Shown here piece by piece: positions 2,354 to 33,493 of a stretch of DNA of 64,000 nucleotides (the stretch's first letter is position 1; each line of letters begins with the position of its first letter). Location of the stretch: positions 1,408,001-1,472,000 of the forward strand of contig CAWIAD010000001.1 of the NCBI GenBank assembly GCA_963833985.1. Direction: 5' to 3'. The notes under the pieces are model-generated. The model had not been told where the DNA came from and did not search any database. It saw only the letters and a list, made by a program, of their open reading frames with translations. This stretch comes from an uncultured Planctomycetaceae bacterium. Its GTDB lineage: Bacteria > Planctomycetota > Planctomycetia > Isosphaerales > Isosphaeraceae. Position numbers and translations under genes: made by a program.

Positions 2354-2388
2354 GTTTCTGGCACCCTATCGCAATGGAACCGGTAAAT

Positions 2389-2502
2389 CTAATCGATCAA
2401 GTGTGCGAGGATATCCTTGGGTCCACGGCCCGTGAATTCCTGCTCGAATCGGCTCATCCACTTGCAGATGGCGGCTTCGATTTCCCCCTGCGTTTTCATC
2501 AT
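2389..2502 (-). pseudogene. Truncated DUF2294 (MpsC-like) gene, N-terminal ~37 codons only
   Basis: MKTQGEIEAAICKWMSRFEQEFTGRGPKDILAHLID* is near-identical to the N-terminus of 6462..6851, then homology stops. Confidence 0.85.
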
Positions 2503-2722
2503 GACCTCCGGTGCGTTCCACCTCACGGTTGAGAGGCCACGCGCTTGGCTCGCCCCGCGGTGCAACCAAGCCTGGATCGCCCGCTCTCGGGCCATTTAAG
2601 ATTGATCCTACAAGGAAACGAAAAACAATTCACTTGCTATTTGCATCGCGCAGGACAATAACGAGCTGAAGGGGTTTCATGTCATCTTGACTTGAGCTCC
2701 GGAGAGATCGTAAACGAAACAC

Positions 2723-2832
2723 CTCGGACGACTAGGTAAAGAGCAACTCGGCTGGTCCGAGAGGCTCGTTAACGAGTAAGCCGATGTGGTCGAAGCCTTC
2801 AGGGTTTTCGACCACGTCGGCTTTTTTTGTTT
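2723..2832 (+). ncRNA. Structured cis-regulatory leader RNA with intrinsic terminator, copy 1
   Basis: CUCGGACGAC...GAGC-AA-CUCGG/CCGAG-AG-GCUC...GUAAG, then long hairpin GCCGAUGUGGUCG...CGACCACGUCGGC and U7. Three further copies in the window. Confidence 0.75.
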
Positions 2833-3142: not shown

Positions 3143-3346
3143 ATGAATTGGGATCAGATCACCGGCGACTGGAAGCAGTTCAAAGGCAAGGTGAGAGAGA
3201 AGTGGGGCAAGCTGACCGACGATGAGCTGACGACCATCGCCGGAAAGCGTGAGCACCTCGCCGGCCTCCTCCAGGAAAGGTACGGCTACGCCAAGGACCA
3301 GGCCGAGAAGGAACTTAACGAGTTCGCACAGAAGCTGAAGCTGTGA
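3143..3346 (+). CDS. CsbD family stress protein
   Basis: MNWDQITGDWKQFKGKVREKWGKLTDDEL; RBS AAGGAG. Confidence 0.95.
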   Translation: MNWDQITGDWKQFKGKVREKWGKLTDDELTTIAGKREHLAGLLQERYGYAKDQAEKELNEFAQKLKL

Positions 3347-3405: not shown

Positions 3406-3615
3406 ATGGCGACGACCACCAAGCATCCCGCTTACGAGCACCATCACCAGGCCGCAGCCCACCACGCGGCCGCCGCGCACCATCACCTGGAGGCAGCCCA
3501 TCACCACGATACGGGCGAGCACGACCAGGCCAAGAAGCACGCCGAGGCCGCGCACCACCACAGCGAGCACGGTCATAAGCACACAACCACAGCGCATCAG
3601 CACTCGAGCAAGTGA
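3406..3615 (+). CDS. Small His/Ala-rich protein, candidate metal-binding
   Basis: RBS AAGGAG; 22 of 69 residues are His; followed by a hairpin. Confidence 0.8.
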   Translation: MATTTKHPAYEHHHQAAAHHAAAAHHHLEAAHHHDTGEHDQAKKHAEAAHHHSEHGHKHTTTAHQHSSK

Positions 3616-6461: not shown

Positions 6462-6851
6462 TCAGGAGTTCGACCTCTTTTTGACCTCGCGGAGAAGCGG
6501 CGACTCGGCCAGAGTGAAGATCACCACCTCTTCACCGGTCGTGGTACTGATATCGTGGTGCATGCTGAGTACCTTGATGCCGGTGCACTCTCGGATCATC
6601 GCTTCCATGAGCGGCCGCGCGGTTTCGATCAGATGCGTCCGAACTTGCTTGAGCAGGTCTCTCCCCTTCTCGGCCGGGAGAGACTTGACCAGATGCTGCT
6701 CGGCCGCGGTCAGAACGCCCTGAAGCCGGACAAGGACCAGATCATCGATCAGGTGTGTGCGAATATCCTTGGGACCGCGGCCCATGTACTCCAGCTCGAA
6801 GCGACTCATGCCCTGACAGATGGAGGCTTCGATCTCACCCTGCGTTTTCAC
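6462..6851 (-). CDS. DUF2294 / MpsC-like protein, intact
   Basis: GTG start: KTQGEIEASICQGMSRFELEYMGRGPKDIRTHLIDDLVLVRLQGVLTAAEQHL...LSMHHDISTTTGEEVVIFTL. Confidence 0.9.
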   Translation of the reverse strand: MKTQGEIEASICQGMSRFELEYMGRGPKDIRTHLIDDLVLVRLQGVLTAAEQHLVKSLPAEKGRDLLKQVRTHLIETARPLMEAMIRECTGIKVLSMHHDISTTTGEEVVIFTLAESPLLREVKKRSNS

Positions 6852-7074
6852 GATGGCCTTCAACGCGTTCGATGTCGCCGGGCGGATGCCACTCGCTCGG
6901 TCCACTCCGGAGTGCAACCGAGCATCGCGCGACCCTTCTGGGCCGCTGTCACATTGATCGTACAAGAAAACACAAAAATTGTCACTTGCTTTTTTCATTT
7001 CTCGCAGGCTACAGTCGTTGTATAGGACTCATGTCCACATGGCAAGGGCTTCGGTCGGATCATGAGTGCAGGTT

Positions 7075-7182
7075 GTCGGACGACTAGGTGAAGGGCAACC
7101 CGGCTGGTCCGGGGGGCTCGTTAACAAGTAAGCCGACGTGGTCGAATACCTGAGGGTGTTTGATCACGTCGGCATTTTTTTT
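7075..7182 (+). ncRNA. Structured leader RNA with intrinsic terminator, copy 2
   Basis: GUCGGACGAC...GGGC-AA-CCCGG/CCGGG-GG-GCUC...GUAAG; hairpin 7132-7173 with UGAG loop, then U8. Confidence 0.78.
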
Positions 7183-7228
7183 CGCTTGCGGTGACACCCG
7201 GCGGTCGCAGGCACCAAGGAGGCACCGG

Positions 7229-7648
7229 ATGGAAGAGGTCAGTCTGACCATGGCACAGCGGGTTGCCGAAGTAGCAGCCGCTTTCGAAAAGCAGCGAACA
7301 GGCCACGTGCCGCAGGCGGTGACGGTTGTTCTGGGCGACGAGACCTTGGTTATCACCCTGCACGGAGCCTTGTCGCCAGCCGAGCGTGCGCTTGCCCAGA
7401 CACCGGAGGGAGCCGCACAGGTGCAGGAGTTTCACCGCCAGTTGTTCAACGACTCCGCCGACGGGCTGCGGCAGGAGATCAAACGGATCACGGGAGTCGA
7501 GGTGCGCGAAGCCAGGGCGGAAATCGAAACGAAGACGGGCACCGTGGTGCAAGTCTTCACGACCGGCACTGTGGTGCAAGTATTCTTGCTCGCCAGTGGC
7601 ATATCCACGGAGACCTGGAACGGAACTGGGACTGTCAAGGCGTCATGA
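7229..7648 (+). CDS. DUF2294 / MpsC-like protein, second subtype
   Basis: FEKQRTGHVPQAVTVVLGDETLVITLHGALSPAERAL...IKRITGVEV...TGTVVQVF aligns with the DUF2294 pattern; strong RBS. Confidence 0.85.
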   Translation: MEEVSLTMAQRVAEVAAAFEKQRTGHVPQAVTVVLGDETLVITLHGALSPAERALAQTPEGAAQVQEFHRQLFNDSADGLRQEIKRITGVEVREARAEIETKTGTVVQVFTTGTVVQVFLLASGISTETWNGTGTVKAS

Positions 7649-7664
7649 GCACGGAGGAGATTGC

Positions 7665-7892
7665 ATGCTGATCTTGTCGAGAAAACCACTGGAATCGGTT
7701 GTGGTCGGCGGTGCTGTCGGCTTCGAGCGCGTGCTCAAGATCACGGTACTCGAGCTCAGTGGCGGTCGCGTGCGACTTGGCTTCGAGGCCGACTCGTCCG
7801 TTCCCGTCCATCGCTGGGAGGTGTGGGAAAAGATCCGCGCTCGAGGCCAACCGGAGAGCCCTCTGGAGGAACCCACGGCGCCGGCGGTCTGA
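7665..7892 (+). CDS. csrA: CsrA family RNA-binding regulator
   Basis: MLILSRKPLESVVVG...ITVLELSGGRVRLGFEADSSVPVHRWEVWEKI; RBS GGAGG. Confidence 0.9.
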   Translation: MLILSRKPLESVVVGGAVGFERVLKITVLELSGGRVRLGFEADSSVPVHRWEVWEKIRARGQPESPLEEPTAPAV

Positions 7893-7976: not shown

Positions 7977-8153
7977 ATGTTACGCTTTGCTGTAGTTTTC
8001 ATCGTGATCGCACTGATCGCTGGGCTTCTCGGCTTCGTTGGAGTCGCAGGGCACGCATGGGAAGGGGCGAAGATCCTCTTCTTCGTTTTCCTCGTACTCG
8101 CGGTGCTGTCCCTCTTGGTGCACGGGTCGCGCAGGCGAACTTTCGTGGGTTGA
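7977..8153 (+). CDS. DUF1328 small membrane protein
   Basis: MLRFAVVFIVIALIAGLLGFVGVAGHAWEGAKILFFVFLVL. Confidence 0.9.
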   Translation: MLRFAVVFIVIALIAGLLGFVGVAGHAWEGAKILFFVFLVLAVLSLLVHGSRRRTFVG

Positions 8154-8195: not shown

Positions 8196-9449
8196 GTGGG
8201 TATCGTGCGGCCCTTGTTTGTCTCGACCTATCCGCCGGAAGAGTGTGGACTGGCAACTTTCACCAGGGACTCGGCGGATGCGGTCGATGTGGCAGCGCGG
8301 GCCCCAGTATCCTCGGTAGCGGCTATCCGGAAGACGGGCTCACTTCAATACGATGACCAGCGCGTTGTCCATGTCATTGACAACAACAACCGGGATGCCT
8401 ACCGACTGGCTGCGGAAATGGCGAGCGACGGCCCGTTTGACCTCGTGAGCTTGCAGCACGAGTTCGGCCTTTACCCTGGCGAATGGGGCAACCGCGTGCT
8501 GGATTTCGTGCGTGCCTGCCGCAAGCCCGTGGTCACGACTTTCCACACGCTCATGACTCAGCCCGACCCGCTGCCAAGGCGACTGATCCAGAAACTGGCG
8601 GCCCATAGTCAGGGCATGGTGGTCATGACGAAAGTCGCCTCAAGGCTTTTGACAGGCGTCTACGCTGTCCCCTGTCTGAACGTGCAAGTGATTCCTCATG
8701 GCGTGCCACAGGTCACCGTGGAGCGCAGTGAGATTCACAAGGCACGGCTGGGGCTGGGCGGCCGACGCGTGGTGTGCACCTTCGGACTCATCAATCGCGG
8801 TAAGGGCCTGGAATACATGATCGAGGCCATGCCTCGGATCGTGGCCGCCTATCCCGACGTTCTCTACCTGATCGTCGGTGCCACGCACCCAGAAGTCAAG
8901 CGCCACGAGGGAGAAGGTTATCGGAAGCGCCTGGTGGAAATGGCCGGGTCGCTGGGCGTCGGCGATCATGTTCGCTTCGTGAACAGGTATCTCAGCCTGG
9001 CCGAACTCATGGAGCACCTGCACGCCTGCGACGTTTACGTTACGCCCTACCCGGGAAAGGATCAGATAGCCAGCGGTACCCTGGCGTACGCCATGGCCGC
9101 AGGACGGGCCATCGTCAGTACTCCCTACCTCTACGCCGAGGAAGTTCTCGCTGACCAACGAGGCTTGCTCGTTCCTTTCAACGATGCATCCGCCCTGGCC
9201 GAGGCGACAATGCGATTCCTGAGTGATCCCGAGTTCCGACTTGAAACTCAGCGCAGGGCTTACGCGTACGCCAGGCCGATGTTCTGGTCGAATGTGGGAC
9301 GTCAATACCTGGAGTTCTTCCGCCGCATCGTGTCTGCAAGTCGGGAAACACAAGGGGCAGCCAGAGCTTACCGTGCAGATACATCAGCAATTCTGCGGAG
9401 ATCCGAGGGCCAGATTGTACTCCAGTCTTGTGTAGTACCTCCCGAGTAA
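8196..9449 (+). CDS. GT4 family glycosyltransferase
   Basis: [48 protein letters not shown]. Confidence 0.92.
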
Positions 9450-9996: not shown

Positions 9997-10221
9997 ATGT
10001 CCAGCTTCACCTACTGCCAGGAATGCGGGCGCAGGCTCACGGATGTTGTCTTCTGTCCCAGGTGCGGGGAATGGTTTTGCTGCACCGCCTGCCTGACCGC
10101 GGGCTTGGACCGGCACCTTGGCTCGTGCTCGACTTCTGAAATGACGTTGCCACCAGCCGATGCAACGACCTGGCATCTCTCGCCATGGATACTCTGGCCG
10201 GGTTCCCATTCAAGGGGCTAG
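9997..10221 (+). CDS. Small Cys-rich protein, possible Zn-binding
   Basis: CxxC-x9-CxxC-x4-CCxxC pattern; RBS GGGAG. Confidence 0.5.
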   Translation: MSSFTYCQECGRRLTDVVFCPRCGEWFCCTACLTAGLDRHLGSCSTSEMTLPPADATTWHLSPWILWPGSHSRG

Positions 10222-12051
10222 TCTCGGAGTCGGACCCACCCCGTGGGAGCTGGCAGCAAGGAAATTCGGGCCTGCCAGAAGTGCCTTCAAGAGGTCCAGG
10301 TGCACCGGCTTGGCGAGGAAGGCGTTGAAGCCGGCTTCCTGGGACCGGTGGCAATCCGCTTCCTGACCAAGGCCTGACAACGCCACCAGAAGAGTGTCTC
10401 GAAGGCCGAGCTCCTGCCGCAGGTGGCGGGCCAGATCAAGGCCGTCCATTCCCGGCATACTGATGTCGCAGATCACAACGTCGGGGGGGTGCAGGCGGGC
10501 CAGGGCCAGCGCTGTCCAGCCGTCGTACGCGGTTCTCACTTCATAGCCGGCCAGTCTGAGGAGCAGTGACATGCTGTCGATCGCGTCCCTGTTGTCGTCG
10601 ACGAGGAGGATTCGTCGCCCTGGTGCAATCCTGGCTGGCCTCTGCTTGGCCTGCGCGGCGGGATATTCTGCGGGCAGCCGGCTCAGTAGAGGCAGACGAA
10701 CGACGAACTCGGCTCCGTGGCCCAGCCCCGCGCTCGCGGCTTGAACAGAGCCATCGTGCAATTCGATCAGGTTGCGCACCAGAGCCAGTCCAATCCCCAA
10801 TCCCTCCCCGGAGCGGCTCGTCGAACCGTTCGCCTGGGTAAACAGATCGAAGATCGTCGGCAGCATGGCCGGATCGATACCGATGCCCGTGTCCCGCACG
10901 CGGAGAATTGCCTGGTCGCCGTCCGCCTCCACGGTCAGTTCAATGCGGCTTCCATCCTCCGAATATTTGGCGCTGTTGTTCAGGAGGTTCGAGACGACCT
11001 GGGCTAATCGGCCTGCGTCTCCTGCTACCTTGACCGCCCGTCGGGGAAGGGAAATCTCCAGGACGTGTTTTCGCTTGTCGATCAGAGGGCGGCTCATTTC
11101 GACGGCGAGCGCCACCACGACTTTGAGATCAACCGGTTTCATCTGCAGGTTGATCTTGCCATGGCCCACGCGCGACACATCGATCAAATCATCGACCAGC
11201 CGGTTCAGTTGATGGATCTGACGCTCGATCATCTCGGCGAGCTCCTGATACTCAGGACTTTTCAGGCGGATGATCTGCACAGCGTTGCGAATCGGGACGA
11301 GCGGGTTCCTCAGCTCGTGTCCCAGCATCGCCAGGAACTCATCCTTGCGGCGGGAGGCGGCCAGGAGCTCGTGGTAAAGCCGGGCATTCTCCACGACCAA
11401 GGCAGCGCGGTGGGCGAGGTCCTCGGCCACCCATAGGTCTTCCCGGCAGTAACGGCGTCCCGAACGCTCGGAGTAGCAGAAAGTGAGCACCCCCAGTGTC
11501 CCGCCAGGAACCTGAAGCGGCACGGCGATCATCGAGCGGAGCTGCAACTCACGCATGATCTCGAAGTGCCGTTGACTCGTGGCGACTCCCCACATCCAGG
11601 CATCGTTGACTTCCGGGACGAATTCGGGTTGGCCAGTGCGCAATACCTTGCTGACCGGGTCATCGATAGAGCTTCGTACTGGGACAAACTCGAGGAATCG
11701 CTCGAAGAGTTCGTGCTTGATCGTGCTGGCGTGTGCCCAGCTCACCCGCTTTATCGTTCCATCCGTCTCAACAACGTCAAAGAAGCAAAATTCGGCGAGG
11801 AAGGGAACGGCCTGAAGGGCCAGACGTTTCAATGTGGTATCAGAGTCGCGGGAAATGAACTCCCCGCTGCTTTGTAGCAGAAAGCGTTGCGCGTCTTCGG
11901 ATTGTTGGTGCGGGCCTGACGTCGCGGTTGCGGGCATCTCTGCCACTGCAGTCGGGCCAGGGCCGGAGCTCTGCGAGTGCGGCCTACTCGGTAACACCAA
12001 GCCCGGTTTCTTTTCGAAGGGGACAAGTGATTCGAGTGAGGTTGCTTTCAT
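10210..12051 (-). CDS. Hybrid sensor histidine kinase (GAF-HisKA-HATPase-REC)
   Basis: EFLAMLGHELRNPL, NLLNNSAKY, DTGIGI, GLGIGL, ILLVDDN and CDISMPGMDG; RBS GGAG before ATG 12051. Confidence 0.95.
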   Translation of the reverse strand: MKATSLESLVPFEKKPGLVLPSRPHSQSSGPGPTAVAEMPATATSGPHQQSEDAQRFLLQSSGEFISRDSDTTLKRLALQAVPFLAEFCFFDVVETDGTIKRVSWAHASTIKHELFERFLEFVPVRSSIDDPVSKVLRTGQPEFVPEVNDAWMWGVATSQRHFEIMRELQLRSMIAVPLQVPGGTLGVLTFCYSERSGRRYCREDLWVAEDLAHRAALVVENARLYHELLAASRRKDEFLAMLGHELRNPLVPIRNAVQIIRLKSPEYQELAEMIERQIHQLNRLVDDLIDVSRVGHGKINLQMKPVDLKVVVALAVEMSRPLIDKRKHVLEISLPRRAVKVAGDAGRLAQVVSNLLNNSAKYSEDGSRIELTVEADGDQAILRVRDTGIGIDPAMLPTIFDLFTQANGSTSRSGEGLGIGLALVRNLIELHDGSVQAASAGLGHGAEFVVRLPLLSRLPAEYPAAQAKQRPARIAPGRRILLVDDNRDAIDSMSLLLRLAGYEVRTAYDGWTALALARLHPPDVVICDISMPGMDGLDLARHLRQELGLRDTLLVALSGLGQEADCHRSQEAGFNAFLAKPVHLDLLKALLAGPNFLAASSHGVGPTPRLAP

Positions 12052-12119: not shown

Positions 12120-12228
12120 AAACAAAAAAAACCGGCGCGGTGGAGCACCCTGAGGTATCCACCGCGCCGGCTTACTCACTAACGAGCCCCCCGCGAAAGG
12201 CGAGGTGCCCTTTATCCAGTCATCCGAC
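12120..12228 (-). ncRNA. Structured leader RNA with intrinsic terminator, copy 3
   Basis: Reverse strand: GUCGGAUGAC...GGGC-AC-CUCGC/GCGGG-GG-GCUC...GUAAGCCGGCGCGGUGGAUACC-UCAG-GGUGCUCCACCGCGCCGG, then U8. Confidence 0.75.
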
Positions 12229-12384
12229 GATCCCAACTCAAATTGCTATGGGATTTGCCCGCAAAAGTTGGACAGGCTCCCCAAAGTCAATTATTATGCC
12301 AGAATCAGCGTCCATTGCAAGGAAGTTGTTGTTTCTAGATAGGGTGATATCCAAATGACCGGCGATGGAACGGTCCAGGTCACC

Positions 12385-12892
12385 ATGAAAAGAGGGGGAA
12401 ATCGAAGCCGCCATCTGCGCGGGGATGGGTCGCTTCGAGCAGGAATACATGGGCCGTGGGCCCACGGACATCCGCACTCACCTGATCGGCGACTTGCTCC
12501 TCGTCCGCCTCCAGGGCGTCTTGACCGCGGCGGTACGGCACCTGGCCAAGTTGCGGCCGAGAGAAAAGGGGAAGGACCTGCTCAAACAGGTGCGCACGCA
12601 TCTACTCGAAACCGCGCGACCCCTCATGGAAGCCTTGTTCGAAGAAGTCACCGGCATCAAGGTTGCGAGCATGCACCACGATATCAGCACCTTCACCGGG
12701 CAGGAGGTCGTGCTCTTCAGGCTGGCCGAAACTCCGCAGGTCCGCGAGGCGACGAGGAGCTCAAGCCTTCGAACGGTGGCCGCCCAGGTCAAGGTGGTCC
12801 GTTGCAAAAAGCTGCTACCCGGACATAATTTCAACTGCTCTTTCCATGTGACCGTGGCTGCAACGACAAGCGTTCTCCAGGATTTGAATTGA
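12385..12892 (+). CDS. DUF2294 / MpsC-like protein, frameshift in the first codons (~12392)
   Basis: ATGAAA then GEIEAAICAGMGRFEQEYMGRGPTDIRTHL...; ATG 12385 is out of frame with the body of the gene. Confidence 0.85.
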
Positions 12893-12930
12893 GGCAAGCG
12901 AACGTCGGCTCCCGGAATCAAAGAGAAGAT

Positions 12931-13035
12931 GTCGGATGACCAGGCAGAGGGCGGCCCGGGTATTCCGGTCAATTCGTCGAAGCGTAAGCCGGCCTGGTCC
13001 AGGACCTGAGGGTCCTCGACCGCGCCGGTTCTTTT
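12931..13035 (+). ncRNA. Structured leader RNA, copy 4 (diverged, no downstream gene)
   Basis: GUCGGAUGAC...GUAAGCCGGC...GGUC-AGGACC-UGAG-GGUCCU-GACC...GCCGGUUCUUUU. Confidence 0.65.
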
Positions 13036-13074
13036 GCTCGCGCTCCGGTCGCTGGGCCGCAAGGACTTCACGAG

Positions 13075-13350
13075 CGATCCGAAAATGAAGAACGCCCAGT
13101 AGCCGGGCTCGTCCTTGAAGCGCTTCGAGTCCTGGATCGACACCGCCAGGCCGCGGAAGTCACCCATGAAATACCCCTTGCCGCTGGTCGCCTCCCGGGT
13201 GCCGGCGCCGATGAGTTCCTTGATCATCACGGTGCCGTCTCGGAATTCGCCGGTCTTCTCATAGTGAAAGAAGCTCTCCCGGTCCATGTCGACGGCATGG
13301 AACTCGGGGAAAGAGCCCTCGCCACCGTTCATCAGGTCATTGGGTGTACG
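13075..13350 (-). pseudogene. Internal fragment of a cytochrome P460-family gene
   Basis: TPNDLMNGGEGSFPEFHAV...YEKTGEFRDGTVMIKEL...KGYFMGDF...DSKRFKDEPGYWAFFIFG; no signal peptide and no CxxCH. Confidence 0.7.
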
Positions 13351-13731: not shown

Positions 13732-14163
13732 GTGCGCAAGACTCAGATGGTGACCGATCGAGAGCTCGAGATCATGAAGATCTTGTGGGCTCGGGAGAAG
13801 GCCAGCGTCCGCGAGGTTCAGGACGACCTGAACCGCGACAGCGGACCCGTGGCCTACAGTACGGTGCAGACCTTACTCAATATCATGGAAGAGAAAAAAG
13901 GTCTCGTCCGTCATGTTGTCGAGGGAAGGACGTTCATCTACTTCCCGAAGAAGTCCTCGGAGCGGACCATTCGCGAGCTGACGAAGCGTTTCGTCGATCG
14001 CGTCTTTGACGGTGCGCTCGACCGGGTGATGGTGGCCTTGCTCGACTCGAAGCCGCCGACGCCCGAGGACCTGGAACGTCTTCGTGCCATGATTGACGAG
14101 GCCCAGCGCCAATCATCGCAGAACTTCAACGGACACGCGGAGCTTCATCTCCAGGAGGCTTGA
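13732..14163 (+). CDS. BlaI/MecI/CopY family transcriptional repressor
   Basis: TDRELEIMKILW...SVREV...AYSTVQTLLNIMEEKKGLV. Confidence 0.93.
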   Translation: MRKTQMVTDRELEIMKILWAREKASVREVQDDLNRDSGPVAYSTVQTLLNIMEEKKGLVRHVVEGRTFIYFPKKSSERTIRELTKRFVDRVFDGALDRVMVALLDSKPPTPEDLERLRAMIDEAQRQSSQNFNGHAELHLQEA

Positions 14164-14353
14164 CGGGAGTTGACCCTCACCGTCATGCTAATTGAAGTGT
14201 CCGGGGATCCCGGGCCAGGAAGGTGCCTCTCCAGCGCGGCACTGACCTGGCCCTTCGCTTTGACCGCTCTCTCGTCCAGGCGGTTTGAAGGGTCTGTCGG
14301 ACGTCCCTTGGCTCAATTTCACCCGATCATTTTCCCCAGGTAGGGCCACTCAG

Positions 14354-15904
14354 ATGTGGGCCGGCCTCGACCGGTTCGACCGGATTCTCCTGGATGCCAC
14401 GCTTGCAACGACGATCCTGCTCAGCTTTGTGATCCTGCTGGTCTTGCTCTGCCGTCAGCCCAGCCGGCGCCTGGTCGTCGTCCAGGCCGCCACCGTCCTG
14501 ACCATCTTCATCCTTCCTCTGGTGGCCACCAACCCGTTCTCGCCGTCGCGCGTCGGGCTGCGGCTACTTGTTCCGGGGCGGCGCTCCCAACCGATCCGGC
14601 CGTCGCTGCGCCCCTCCGAAGCCGTCCATGCCAGCGCGGGGGACGGTGAGGGAAGCGGTAGAGTTCTTCGGGCCGTGCTGCCAGGCCGGGCCGGAAACGC
14701 GCCGTCCTGGAGCCTCTGGATGGCGCGAGCCTGCGGGCTGGCTTACCTGGCGGGTGTTGCGGCCGGAATGGGCTGGACGGCCCTGGGGTTCTGGGGAATC
14801 CGCCGGCTGATTCACGACTCCAGCGCGCCGCGACCGGAGACCAGCGCCTTCTTTCATTCGCTGATTCCCTTGCAGGGCGAGAACTTGCCGGCTCCCGAAC
14901 TGCGGGTCGCGACCAGGCTGCGACGACCGATCCTGGCTGGGCTCTTCCGCCCCTGTATCTTGATACCCGCGGATTATGACCAGGCGGGATTCGACCGCGA
15001 ATCTCTCAGGCTGATTTTCTTGCATGAGCTGGCCCATGCCGGCCAGTCCGATACGTACTCCAGCGCCGCGGCGAGCCTGGCACAGTGTCTCTGGTTCTTC
15101 CATCCCTTTGTGTGGTGGCTGCGCGCTCAGTTGCGGGTGGACCAGGAATTCCTGGCGGACGAGCGAGTCGTCCATCACACAGGTTCGCCGTCGGGATATG
15201 CAACCCGGCTGGTTTCCCTGGCAGCCGGCTCGGAAGCGGGTGCTCCCTCGGCGCCGAGCGGCAATCAGGCCGGGTCCCGCGCCATGTCTCCGCTCCGTGA
15301 CGCCTCCCCCAGCCCGCTCATGCAGCGGGTTGTGATGCTGCTCCACTGTCCGTTTCCGGTTGAATCAAAGGCTCCGAGGTGGTGGACCTTGTCCGCTCCC
15401 TTTGGTGTTGTGGGGCTAGCAATACTGAGCATCGGCACCAGCACGGCACTGCTGAAGACCTCGTCCCTCGCATCGCGGCCGTCCCGGTCTGAACTCGAAT
15501 CGGGCGTTTTCCAGGTGGGTCAATTCATTGCGCCGCCTTGGAAGCGAAAGTCCACAGGGCGAAGCGTGCCCTACGTCTTACCCCTTGCCCTGCCACCGCG
15601 ATTCGAGCTGACAGTCAAGATCGAGGGATCGCCCTCCGCCCTGTCGCGGATGTACCTGGCAGGGCTGTCACTGGAACCCCCCCTCTCACTCTCTCTCGAA
15701 TCCGGGCCGCCGCCAACGCCCGAGGATGCCGCCGCCGGCTGGCACCTGGTCAAAGTTGCCCGCCAGTCCGATCAGATCGCCATCACCGTCGATACGCGCA
15801 CCTGGCACATGGAAGCCACCAGGGAACGACTCTCGGAATGGCTGTCGATCGAGCCGCCACCCGCCGAGACTGTTGTGCTACGCGACTTACAGGTCATCTG
15901 GTGA
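14354..15904 (+). CDS. M56 (BlaR1-like) membrane metallopeptidase
   Basis: HELAH, WFFHPFVWW, EFLADE; adjacent to BlaI; start uncertain. Confidence 0.9.
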   Translation: MWAGLDRFDRILLDATLATTILLSFVILLVLLCRQPSRRLVVVQAATVLTIFILPLVATNPFSPSRVGLRLLVPGRRSQPIRPSLRPSEAVHASAGDGEGSGRVLRAVLPGRAGNAPSWSLWMARACGLAYLAGVAAGMGWTALGFWGIRRLIHDSSAPRPETSAFFHSLIPLQGENLPAPELRVATRLRRPILAGLFRPCILIPADYDQAGFDRESLRLIFLHELAHAGQSDTYSSAAASLAQCLWFFHPFVWWLRAQLRVDQEFLADERVVHHTGSPSGYATRLVSLAAGSEAGAPSAPSGNQAGSRAMSPLRDASPSPLMQRVVMLLHCPFPVESKAPRWWTLSAPFGVVGLAILSIGTSTALLKTSSLASRPSRSELESGVFQVGQFIAPPWKRKSTGRSVPYVLPLALPPRFELTVKIEGSPSALSRMYLAGLSLEPPLSLSLESGPPPTPEDAAAGWHLVKVARQSDQIAITVDTRTWHMEATRERLSEWLSIEPPPAETVVLRDLQVIW

Positions 15905-29857: not shown

Positions 29858-29928
29858 GGGCGGCTAACTCAGCGGTTAGAGTGCCATCCTCACACGGTGG
29901 AAGTCGCAGGTTCGAATCCCGCCGCCCA
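29858..29928 (+). tRNA. tRNA-Val(CAC); 3' side appears 2 nt short
   Basis: GGGCGGC acceptor, D arm CTCAGCGGTTAGAG, anticodon stem CCATC/GGTGG with CAC at 29891-29893, GGTTCGAATCC. Confidence 0.9.
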
Positions 29929-30777: not shown

Positions 30778-30872
30778 CGTAAGTCGTTATTTTCCTAGAT
30801 TCTTCGCTTTTCGGCTCTCCTCACACGGTGGAAGTCGCAGGTTCGAATCCCGCACCGCCCATTCGACTTACG
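30778..30872 (+). repeat. att-like duplicate of the tRNA-Val 3' half with flanking inverted motif
   Basis: 30818-30864 repeats 29887-29931; CGTAAGTCG (30778) and CGACTTACG (30864) form an inverted pair. Confidence 0.9.
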
Positions 30873-33409: not shown

Positions 33410-33493
33410 CGTAAGTGCTCATTTCTCTCATACATTGTTTTCGGGCACATCCTCCCACAGTGGGAATCGCTGGTTCGAGACCGGCGCCGGCAT
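33410..33493 (+). repeat. Degenerate third copy of the tRNA-Val 3' half (att-like)
   Basis: CATCCTCCCACAGTGGGAATCGCTGGTTCGAGACCGGCGCCGGCAT, about 37/47 identical to the tRNA; CGTAAGT 40 bp upstream, as at 30778. Confidence 0.7.

Follow-up and report, generated by a model that had tools for sequence, protein, structure and literature searches.

The window analysed here is a stretch of 64,000 nucleotides from the genome of an uncultured Planctomycetaceae bacterium. It contains four copies of a leader RNA, interspersed with genes of the MpsC/DUF2294 family (PF10057). The features are as follows.

2383..2499, − strand: shortened MpsC type A (MpsC-A) remnant, divergent from copy 1
2721..2827, + strand: leader copy 1 (covariance model 108.8 bits; member of the training set)
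3143-3346, + strand: CsbD gene, after copy 1 and the remnant start of a type B gene
6462..6851, − strand: MpsC/DUF2294 type A gene, divergent from copy 2 (PF10057, E 4.8e-38, 130.1 bits against a cut-off of 23)
6957..6985, − strand: promoter-like site of the MpsC-A gene that diverges from copy 2 (by consensus match only)
6986..7015, + strand: putative sigma70-like promoter of leader copy 2 (−35-like hexamer at 6986, −10-like at 7010, 18-nt spacer)
7075..7182, + strand: leader copy 2, antiterminator rod plus terminator, its letters as originally given
7075..7137, + strand: antiterminator rod of copy 2, with P1 at 7075-7079/7133-7137
7080-7082/7130-7132, + strand: 3x3 loop of the rod, between P1 and P2a
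7083-7085/7127-7129, + strand: P2a
7089-7091/7121-7123, + strand: P2b
7093-7096/7116-7119, + strand: P3, followed by an AA/GG mismatch and P4 (7099-7103/7109-7113)
7132..7182, + strand: intrinsic terminator of 19 pairs (7132-7173), then U8/U-tract; its 5′ arm overlaps P1
7229..7648, + strand: MpsC type B (MpsC-B) paralogue, first gene after copy 2 (PF10057, E 1.5e-23, 83.4 bits against a cut-off of 23)
7665..7892, + strand: CsrA-like protein, below the NCBIfam equivalog cut-offs
7977..8153, + strand: DUF1328 small membrane protein
8196..9449, + strand: group 1/4 glycosyltransferase
10210-12051, − strand: GAF/histidine kinase/receiver gene behind copy 3, start uncertain
12125..12230, − strand: leader copy 3, preceding the GAF/histidine kinase/receiver gene
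12386..12892, + strand: MpsC-A gene, divergent from copy 3 and frameshifted close to its start
12929..13035, + strand: leader copy 4, decayed (71.1 bits; P3 disrupted)

The four copies were found by exact pattern match, with starts at approximately 2723 (+), 7075 (+), 12228 (−) and 12931 (+). When two mismatches are allowed the pattern gives nine matches against 8.5 by chance, and thus no excess, while the 3′ motif occurs four times against 0.38 expected, a number reached by no shuffle. The putative promoter at 6986 was missed by a stricter promoter scan. The upstream search for copy 4 gave no promoter-like site, and the computed probability of its base helix in the nascent RNA is 0.01. The source genome (65% GC, 10.2 Mb) contains eight copies by pattern and ten by covariance model, arranged as two islands plus one copy that is 2.27 Mb from the nearest MpsC gene.

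Copy 1 and its flanks (2383-2920) duplicate the cassette of copy 2 (6744-7272) at 73-76% identity; in the duplicate both MpsC genes are now remnants and CsbD follows. A 69-aa His/Ala-rich ORF lies after CsbD (3406-3615); it has no Pfam or NCBIfam match, and similar proteins are found behind leaders in loci L055 and L098. Between 12125 and 13035 two leaders face away from each other around one MpsC-A gene, frameshifted and decayed, and the same arrangement is present intact on contig C2 (G000:C2:1345215-1346178). A cytochrome P460-like ORF (12478-13332, −) has a long frame that overlaps two + strand features, copy 4 in its decayed form and the broken MpsC-A gene. The ribosome-binding region of MpsC-B (7210-7235) has two GGA motifs, possible sites for the adjacent CsrA-like protein. 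Beside the island is a BlaI-like repressor with a BlaR1/M56 peptidase (13747-15904). Further away there is a tRNA gene (29858-29928) with an exact 36-nt repeat ∼930 nt downstream at 30818-30853, resembling the attachment site of an integrated element, and a 78% similar stretch lies at 33450.

The original prediction was made from the letters alone, and its central claim of mutually exclusive antiterminator and terminator pairings in the 5′ leader is upheld. In copy 2 the nucleotides 7075-7079 (GUCGG) can pair with 7133-7137 (CCGAC), and the latter are both the 3′ strand of P1 and part of the terminator 5′ arm. The full-length RNA is computed to adopt the terminator fold (z = −6.5), and RNA cut at 7142, before the terminator 3′ arm, adopts the antiterminator rod (z = −1.9, equalled by 9 of 200 shuffles). 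The rod is unbranched and irregular, about 63-65 nt in length, with a variable apical loop. It had been suggested that unpaired GGAY and GUAAG face each other to form a binding pocket. There is indeed a conserved internal loop that is a likely recognition site, but the GG lies inside the base helix and the GU of GUAAG pairs with AC, so that the unpaired part is a 3x3 loop, AYG/AAG. For the AGUA opposite GAC, a bulged-G (loop E) motif and plain P2a pairing fit the present data alike.

How widespread is this RNA? A pattern scan of contigs gave at least 132 loci; among the matches listed, 77 of 80 titled loci are from Planctomycetota, and the scan of viral contigs gave no match. From 143 extracted matches L083, which lacks a terminator, and L042, which could not be aligned, were dropped before counting, leaving 141. 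The main covariation alignment comprises 108 copies found by the fixed-motif pattern. Scanned against Rfam 15 at the gathering threshold, the window and 14 MpsC loci contain only tRNAs, and an E-value scan of 20 loci gave only five chance matches, all below gathering.

The inner-hairpin variants noted in the window copies are correct, and among the 108 homologues seven of the nine pairs of P3/P4 have two-sided changes, where slid controls pair far less. Two-sided changes are also found at all three pairs of P2b and at 15 of the 19 terminator pairs, in each case well above slid controls; the terminator stems do vary in sequence yet stay paired, as had been described. For P1 the outcome is different. 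Two-sided changes are found at none of its five pairs, of which two are fixed by the search pattern and two vary by G•U only; 35 of 108 copies leave the outermost one unpaired. The claim of compensatory change in the switching helix is not sustained by these homologues, and the substitution of CCGAC by CCGGC that had been read in this way is really one-sided, from U-A to U•G. Two-sided changes in P1 occur only in two copies found by covariance model, L167 and L204. Thus a wider alignment bears out covariation in the inner and terminator helices, but not, in the main alignment, in the switching helix. The terminator apex CCU(C/G)AGGG, thought to be conserved, is present in only 22 of 141 homologues. 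There is strong conservation of bases around the internal loops of the rod.

A U-tract ends the element in all 137 homologues with sufficient 3′ sequence. In 131 of 137 the terminator is the more stable fold, with a mean advantage of 6.9 kcal/mol, and when the RNAs are shortened before completion of the terminator the computed probability of P1 exceeds 0.5 in 137 of 137. Upstream, 61 of 139 homologues have a sigma70-like site, where 2.4 would be expected; the pattern used was devised from these copies. A conserved terminator and U-tract overlapping an alternative helix, with a promoter 5′ and genes 3′, is the arrangement of the general class of intrinsic-terminator attenuators, and the element is very probably a cis-acting transcription attenuator.

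Two other origins for such a sequence can be set aside. A mobile repeat or DNA palindrome is ruled out by the many changes that keep G•U pairs, by the fixed length and by the fixed orientation between promoter and genes. A leader-peptide attenuator was considered, as many copies have a three-codon frame, but this begins with ACG in 44 of 141, copy 2 included; a Shine-Dalgarno-like site is found in six of 141 against 14 expected, and the upstream frame is absent from the second RNA type described below.

The genes that accompany the leader were counted in 70 DNA-pattern matches having at least 1 kb of flanking sequence. An MpsC gene is present in 33 of these loci and in 37 there is none. Type A is found in 27, divergent within 900 nt of the leader in 18, and type B in 21, as first gene in 15; a CsrA-like gene is found in 14. 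Of 112 predicted downstream ORFs 79 were scanned, those left out being mainly ones already known as MpsC or CsrA. The families identified are DUF3309 (5), PAS/kinase/receiver (5), YflT (4), CsbD (3), ferritin-like (2), SPFH (2), DUF2934 (2), DUF1328, PRC, Hsp70 and S30AE (one each) and cation transporters, and 24 of the 79 have no family. We take these families to mark a general stress response. CsbD is described as a general-stress protein in PMC11109978.

The strongest clue, overlooked in the original prediction, is the tie to the MpsC/DUF2294 genes; it makes a protein ligand more probable than a pocket for a metabolite. In a sample of 400 genomes of the phylum true copies were found by the DNA pattern in six, five of which carry MpsC at at least 62% identity, and the type A protein was matched in 29 genomes. 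Behind more distant MpsC genes (44-58% identity) there is often a promoter with a leader-terminator that is related but shorter, which we term type II. Its helices covary at 17 of 24 pairs in 27 sequences. As a reverse test 80 metagenome loci were picked by one such distant protein alone, and among the 66 with at least 280 nt downstream, 45 have a type II leader-terminator at 30 bits or more, 20 of these 45 having trained the model.

The two RNA types are related. The type I and type II models match each other's RNAs weakly, at identical coordinates. Few bases are shared overall. Both have a common core in which GG-NNG-AY faces RU-ANN-CC, and in the middle of P2a type I has a C-G pair where type II has U-A. 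Using covariance models on the 29 MpsC-positive genomes, type I is found in 8, type II in 12 and either in 19, and 10 have no match by either model; six genomes of each positive set took part in model training. Positives outside the training sets are G137, G269 and G046 for type I, and G013, G046, G132, G266, G311 and G355 for type II. Among the 371 MpsC-negative genomes 130 were tested, and neither RNA was found in any of them. A single RNA-bearing genome, G057, has a type I RNA and no MpsC match, in an assembly that is 89% complete. These searches scored 48-52 candidates per genome, and related genomes are not independent.

The type of RNA follows the type of protein. Where MpsC is at least 60% identical to that of the window, seven of seven genomes have type I and none type II; at 44-58% identity type II is found in 12 of 22 genomes and type I in one. 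Furthermore, the leaders that are far from any MpsC gene (37 of 70) nonetheless fall in MpsC genomes, as a factor acting in trans requires. Linkage and matching types can also arise by co-transfer of a cassette or by shared regulation.

Type II leaders, together with others found by model, have 94 predicted downstream ORFs, of which 48 were scanned. They include diverged MpsC (13), PEP carboxykinase (10), chorismate synthase (3), pyruvate:ferredoxin oxidoreductase (2) and SbtA with its PII partner (1), the rest being mixed. These genes point to CO2 or bicarbonate as a possible signal. In family f35 type II is found in three of the four MpsC-bearing genomes of genus g133 and in none of six MpsC-negative relatives tested; the leaders of this genus precede SbtA-PII and pyruvate:ferredoxin oxidoreductase. 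In loci L220, L222 and L235 type II leaders occur in tandem, two before one operon.

Related leaders extend to Bacillota. In an Anoxybacillus plasmid record one lies directly after MpsC and before an annotated SbtA-type bicarbonate permease (35.7 bits), and in a plasmid record of Acetoanaerobium (Bacillota) another lies directly after MpsC (39.5 bits). Neither model matched the mpsAB-mpsC record of a Staphylococcus plasmid, the mpsA leader included. A strong terminator-like hairpin with a U-tract is present directly before the mpsA ribosome-binding site in a Staphylococcus pettenkoferi plasmid (L205, ∼2445-2490), and neither model matches it. Leaders beside MpsC genes that bear terminators and are scored by neither model were also noted in L179 (after 5887), upstream of MpsC in L180 and L181, and in L177, and these may be further RNA types.

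The type A protein is modelled with confidence (pLDDT 92), its elements ordered helix-strand-strand-helix-helix-strand-strand. In 55 sequences spanning the RNA types the invariant residues are G24-R25-G26-P27, R42, G63, K68, R71, H98, D100 and S102; thus the basic residues R25, R42, K68 and R71 are invariant, and R64 is nearly so. In the model three of these K/R residues lie on one face of the helix at 60-90. Despite these residues' presence in type A, the net charge of its members in this group is acidic, −4 on average. The type A and type B proteins of the window are 24% identical; type B is homologous (99.4%), has lost the invariant type A motifs, K/R residues included, and stands apart in the tree save for one long branch. 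Bacillota members keep the type A motifs, and two of them adjoin a related leader.

Searches by structure gave no clear relative. No match by VIA-align reaches Z 8, and type II KH proteins recur at Z 4.4-6.1. RbfA aligns with type A at Z 5.4 (rmsd 3.9, 87 aligned) and with type B at Z 6.1 (rmsd 6.2, 102 aligned), in both cases below unrelated proteins. Foldseek gave no match at E 0.001 or better, PDB sequence and profile searches gave nothing significant, and the ESM Atlas returned MpsC clusters only. According to PMC6689103, deletion of mpsC in S. aureus causes no growth defect, mpsAB works without mpsC, and mpsA is down-regulated at 5% CO2. MpsC is therefore not a required activator in that organism, which counts against a universal activator role. 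The Na+ transport implied by the Pfam name finds no support in that paper.

The evidence points to an attenuator operated by a protein rather than a riboswitch, and since the RNA tracks MpsC/DUF2294 so closely it is probably MpsC that flips the switch. We consider a direct role for MpsC-A as an ON factor, binding the conserved loop and blocking termination, to be the better-supported reading and a fairly probable one. Its computed basis is the promoter-like site ∼60-90 nt upstream, the two exclusive folds, their order of formation and the association of RNA with protein. The nascent leader would fold into the irregular rod, whose last five bases double as 5′ arm of the stronger terminator. Lacking its partner, P1 would be displaced by the terminator 3′ arm and transcription would stop at the U-tract near 7180. 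MpsC-A, supplied by the divergent gene or by one at another place in the genome, would bind the loop between P1 and P2a (the common core, GG-NNG-AY opposite RU-ANN-CC) and clamp P1, so that the polymerase reads on. One protein could in this way govern a dispersed regulon of general-stress genes from the ten leaders of the source genome. More speculatively, the type B paralogue as first controlled gene, together with the CsrA-like protein, might act in feedback. Inorganic carbon may have been the ancestral signal.

The ON logic put forward originally fits these data, because it is only the antiterminator that contains the conserved unpaired bases, and on average the terminator fold is the more stable. 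Termination as the default state is something that we infer, since the computed ensembles have the rod form before the terminator as transcription proceeds.

A true ON riboswitch, in which a small molecule or ion binds the loops of the rod and MpsC is a pathway partner in the same cassette, is an improbable alternative. It would account well for the high conservation of bases around the internal loops and for the overlap with the terminator, and terminator-overlapping aptamers exist in the HMP-PP class (PMC7266159). The diversity of downstream genes, with stress and cation transport among them, and the presence of RNA in G057 where MpsC was not found, are further points in its favour. Yet the RNA is a simple unbranched rod with few bases common to types I and II, it is nearly confined to MpsC genomes, and its type follows that of the protein. 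Moreover the MpsC-A gene is mostly divergent or upstream, which places it outside the controlled transcript, in the layout of a regulator.

MpsC-A could instead act negatively, capturing the 5′ strand or destabilizing the rod to promote termination, with read-through by default. The rod does form with a probability near 1 before the terminator is complete, and in S. aureus the lack of a growth defect on deletion of mpsC and the lowered mpsA at 5% CO2 would fit a repressor (PMC6689103). Against a negative role, the loop that is found in the antiterminator alone has conserved bases in its two strands, with cross-type compensation beside it, and the terminator form is favoured by ∼7 kcal/mol; we judge such a role unlikely.

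Less likely still is a model in which the target of MpsC-A is the DNA of the divergent promoters, or another protein, and some other factor switches the leader. A divergent gene arrangement is typical of DNA-binding regulators, the net charge is acidic and the fold searches gave no decisive RNA-binding fold, all of which can be counted for an indirect role, but the matching of RNA type to protein type and the confinement of unlinked leaders to MpsC genomes would go unexplained. That a CsrA-like protein recognizes GGA in the 5′ strand, blocking P1 and enforcing termination as negative autoregulation, is scarcely credible despite the CsrA-like gene in 14 of 70 loci and a weak hairpin that the 5′ fragment could form in 107 of 141 copies, for the other 56 loci have no such gene, GGA is missing from type II RNAs and from two model-found type I copies, and the A commonly found before GGA in sites for CsrA is absent here.

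The leader is thus an uncatalogued attenuator family with a strong candidate protein partner. In the literature covered, which lay outside most subscription papers and the motif lists of PMC11109978 (50 genomes), neither this RNA nor binding of RNA by MpsC is described. If direct action of MpsC-A on the leader is correct it would provide a function for a widespread protein family, including MpsC of S. aureus and YbcI of B. subtilis, and would enlarge the small set of antitermination systems by a new pair of protein and RNA. It would also make testable how planctomycetes control CsbD/YflT-type stress genes, and how non-photosynthetic bacteria match genes of bicarbonate uptake and carboxylation to CO2. 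According to a 2026 preprint (10.64898/2026.09.08.750065) the mechanism of such matching in B. subtilis remains to be explored. Two RNA types that follow two protein types would be a basis for a specificity swap, and possibly for orthogonal switches.

A broader and more tentative proposal, doubtful when taken as a whole, is that MpsC/DUF2294/YbcI proteins form an unrecognised family of RNA-binding antiterminators, possibly KH-like, that sense CO2 or bicarbonate and use cognate leaders in different phyla to control SbtA, PEP carboxykinase and genes related to these; a degenerate paralogue would supply feedback from within the system. One such pair would, in planctomycetes of soil and peat, have diverged and multiplied into a general-stress regulon controlled by antitermination, not by an alternative sigma factor.

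The leader resembles several known systems and differs from each of them. Like the ON riboswitches of the HMP-PP type it has a conserved element that competes directly with the terminator stem (PMC7266159), but here there is no family match and no evident ligand, and instead a dependence on a protein family at the level of genomes. The helix-strand-strand-helix-helix-strand order predicted for MpsC resembles the type II KH fold (RbfA, S3, Era, KhpB); however MpsC lacks the GxxG loop and has one extra strand, and the scores are within the range of unrelated folds. Both proteins encoded in the window are members of the family (PF10057, DUF2294) of MpsC of S. aureus mpsABC and B. subtilis YbcI, but in contrast to mpsABC the window MpsC is found with stress genes, with no MpsAB seen in the loci read. 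HutP, GlpP and the ANTAR proteins (AmiR/NasR/EutV) are likewise small proteins encoded beside an operon that act on a leader terminator. Neither HutP nor GlpP was found in the five RNA-bearing genomes tested. ANTAR proteins were found in three of these five, but not in G162 and G269, and are not near the leaders of the source genome. Their targets are twin short hairpins with conserved hexaloops, whereas the leader is a single long rod with a variable apical loop and no twin short hairpins. The RAT hairpins, bound by the CAT domain of the BglG/SacY/LicT/GlcT antiterminators, are stems with internal loops that overlap the 5′ arm of an intrinsic terminator, and in both systems a clamping protein would turn the genes on. 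The CAT RNA-binding domain (PF03123) was found in none of the five RNA-bearing genomes, control genomes being positive. Unlike RAT, the rod of the present leader is ∼63 nt, its partner is an unrelated protein of ∼125 aa, and the targets are genes of stress and inorganic carbon rather than sugar operons.
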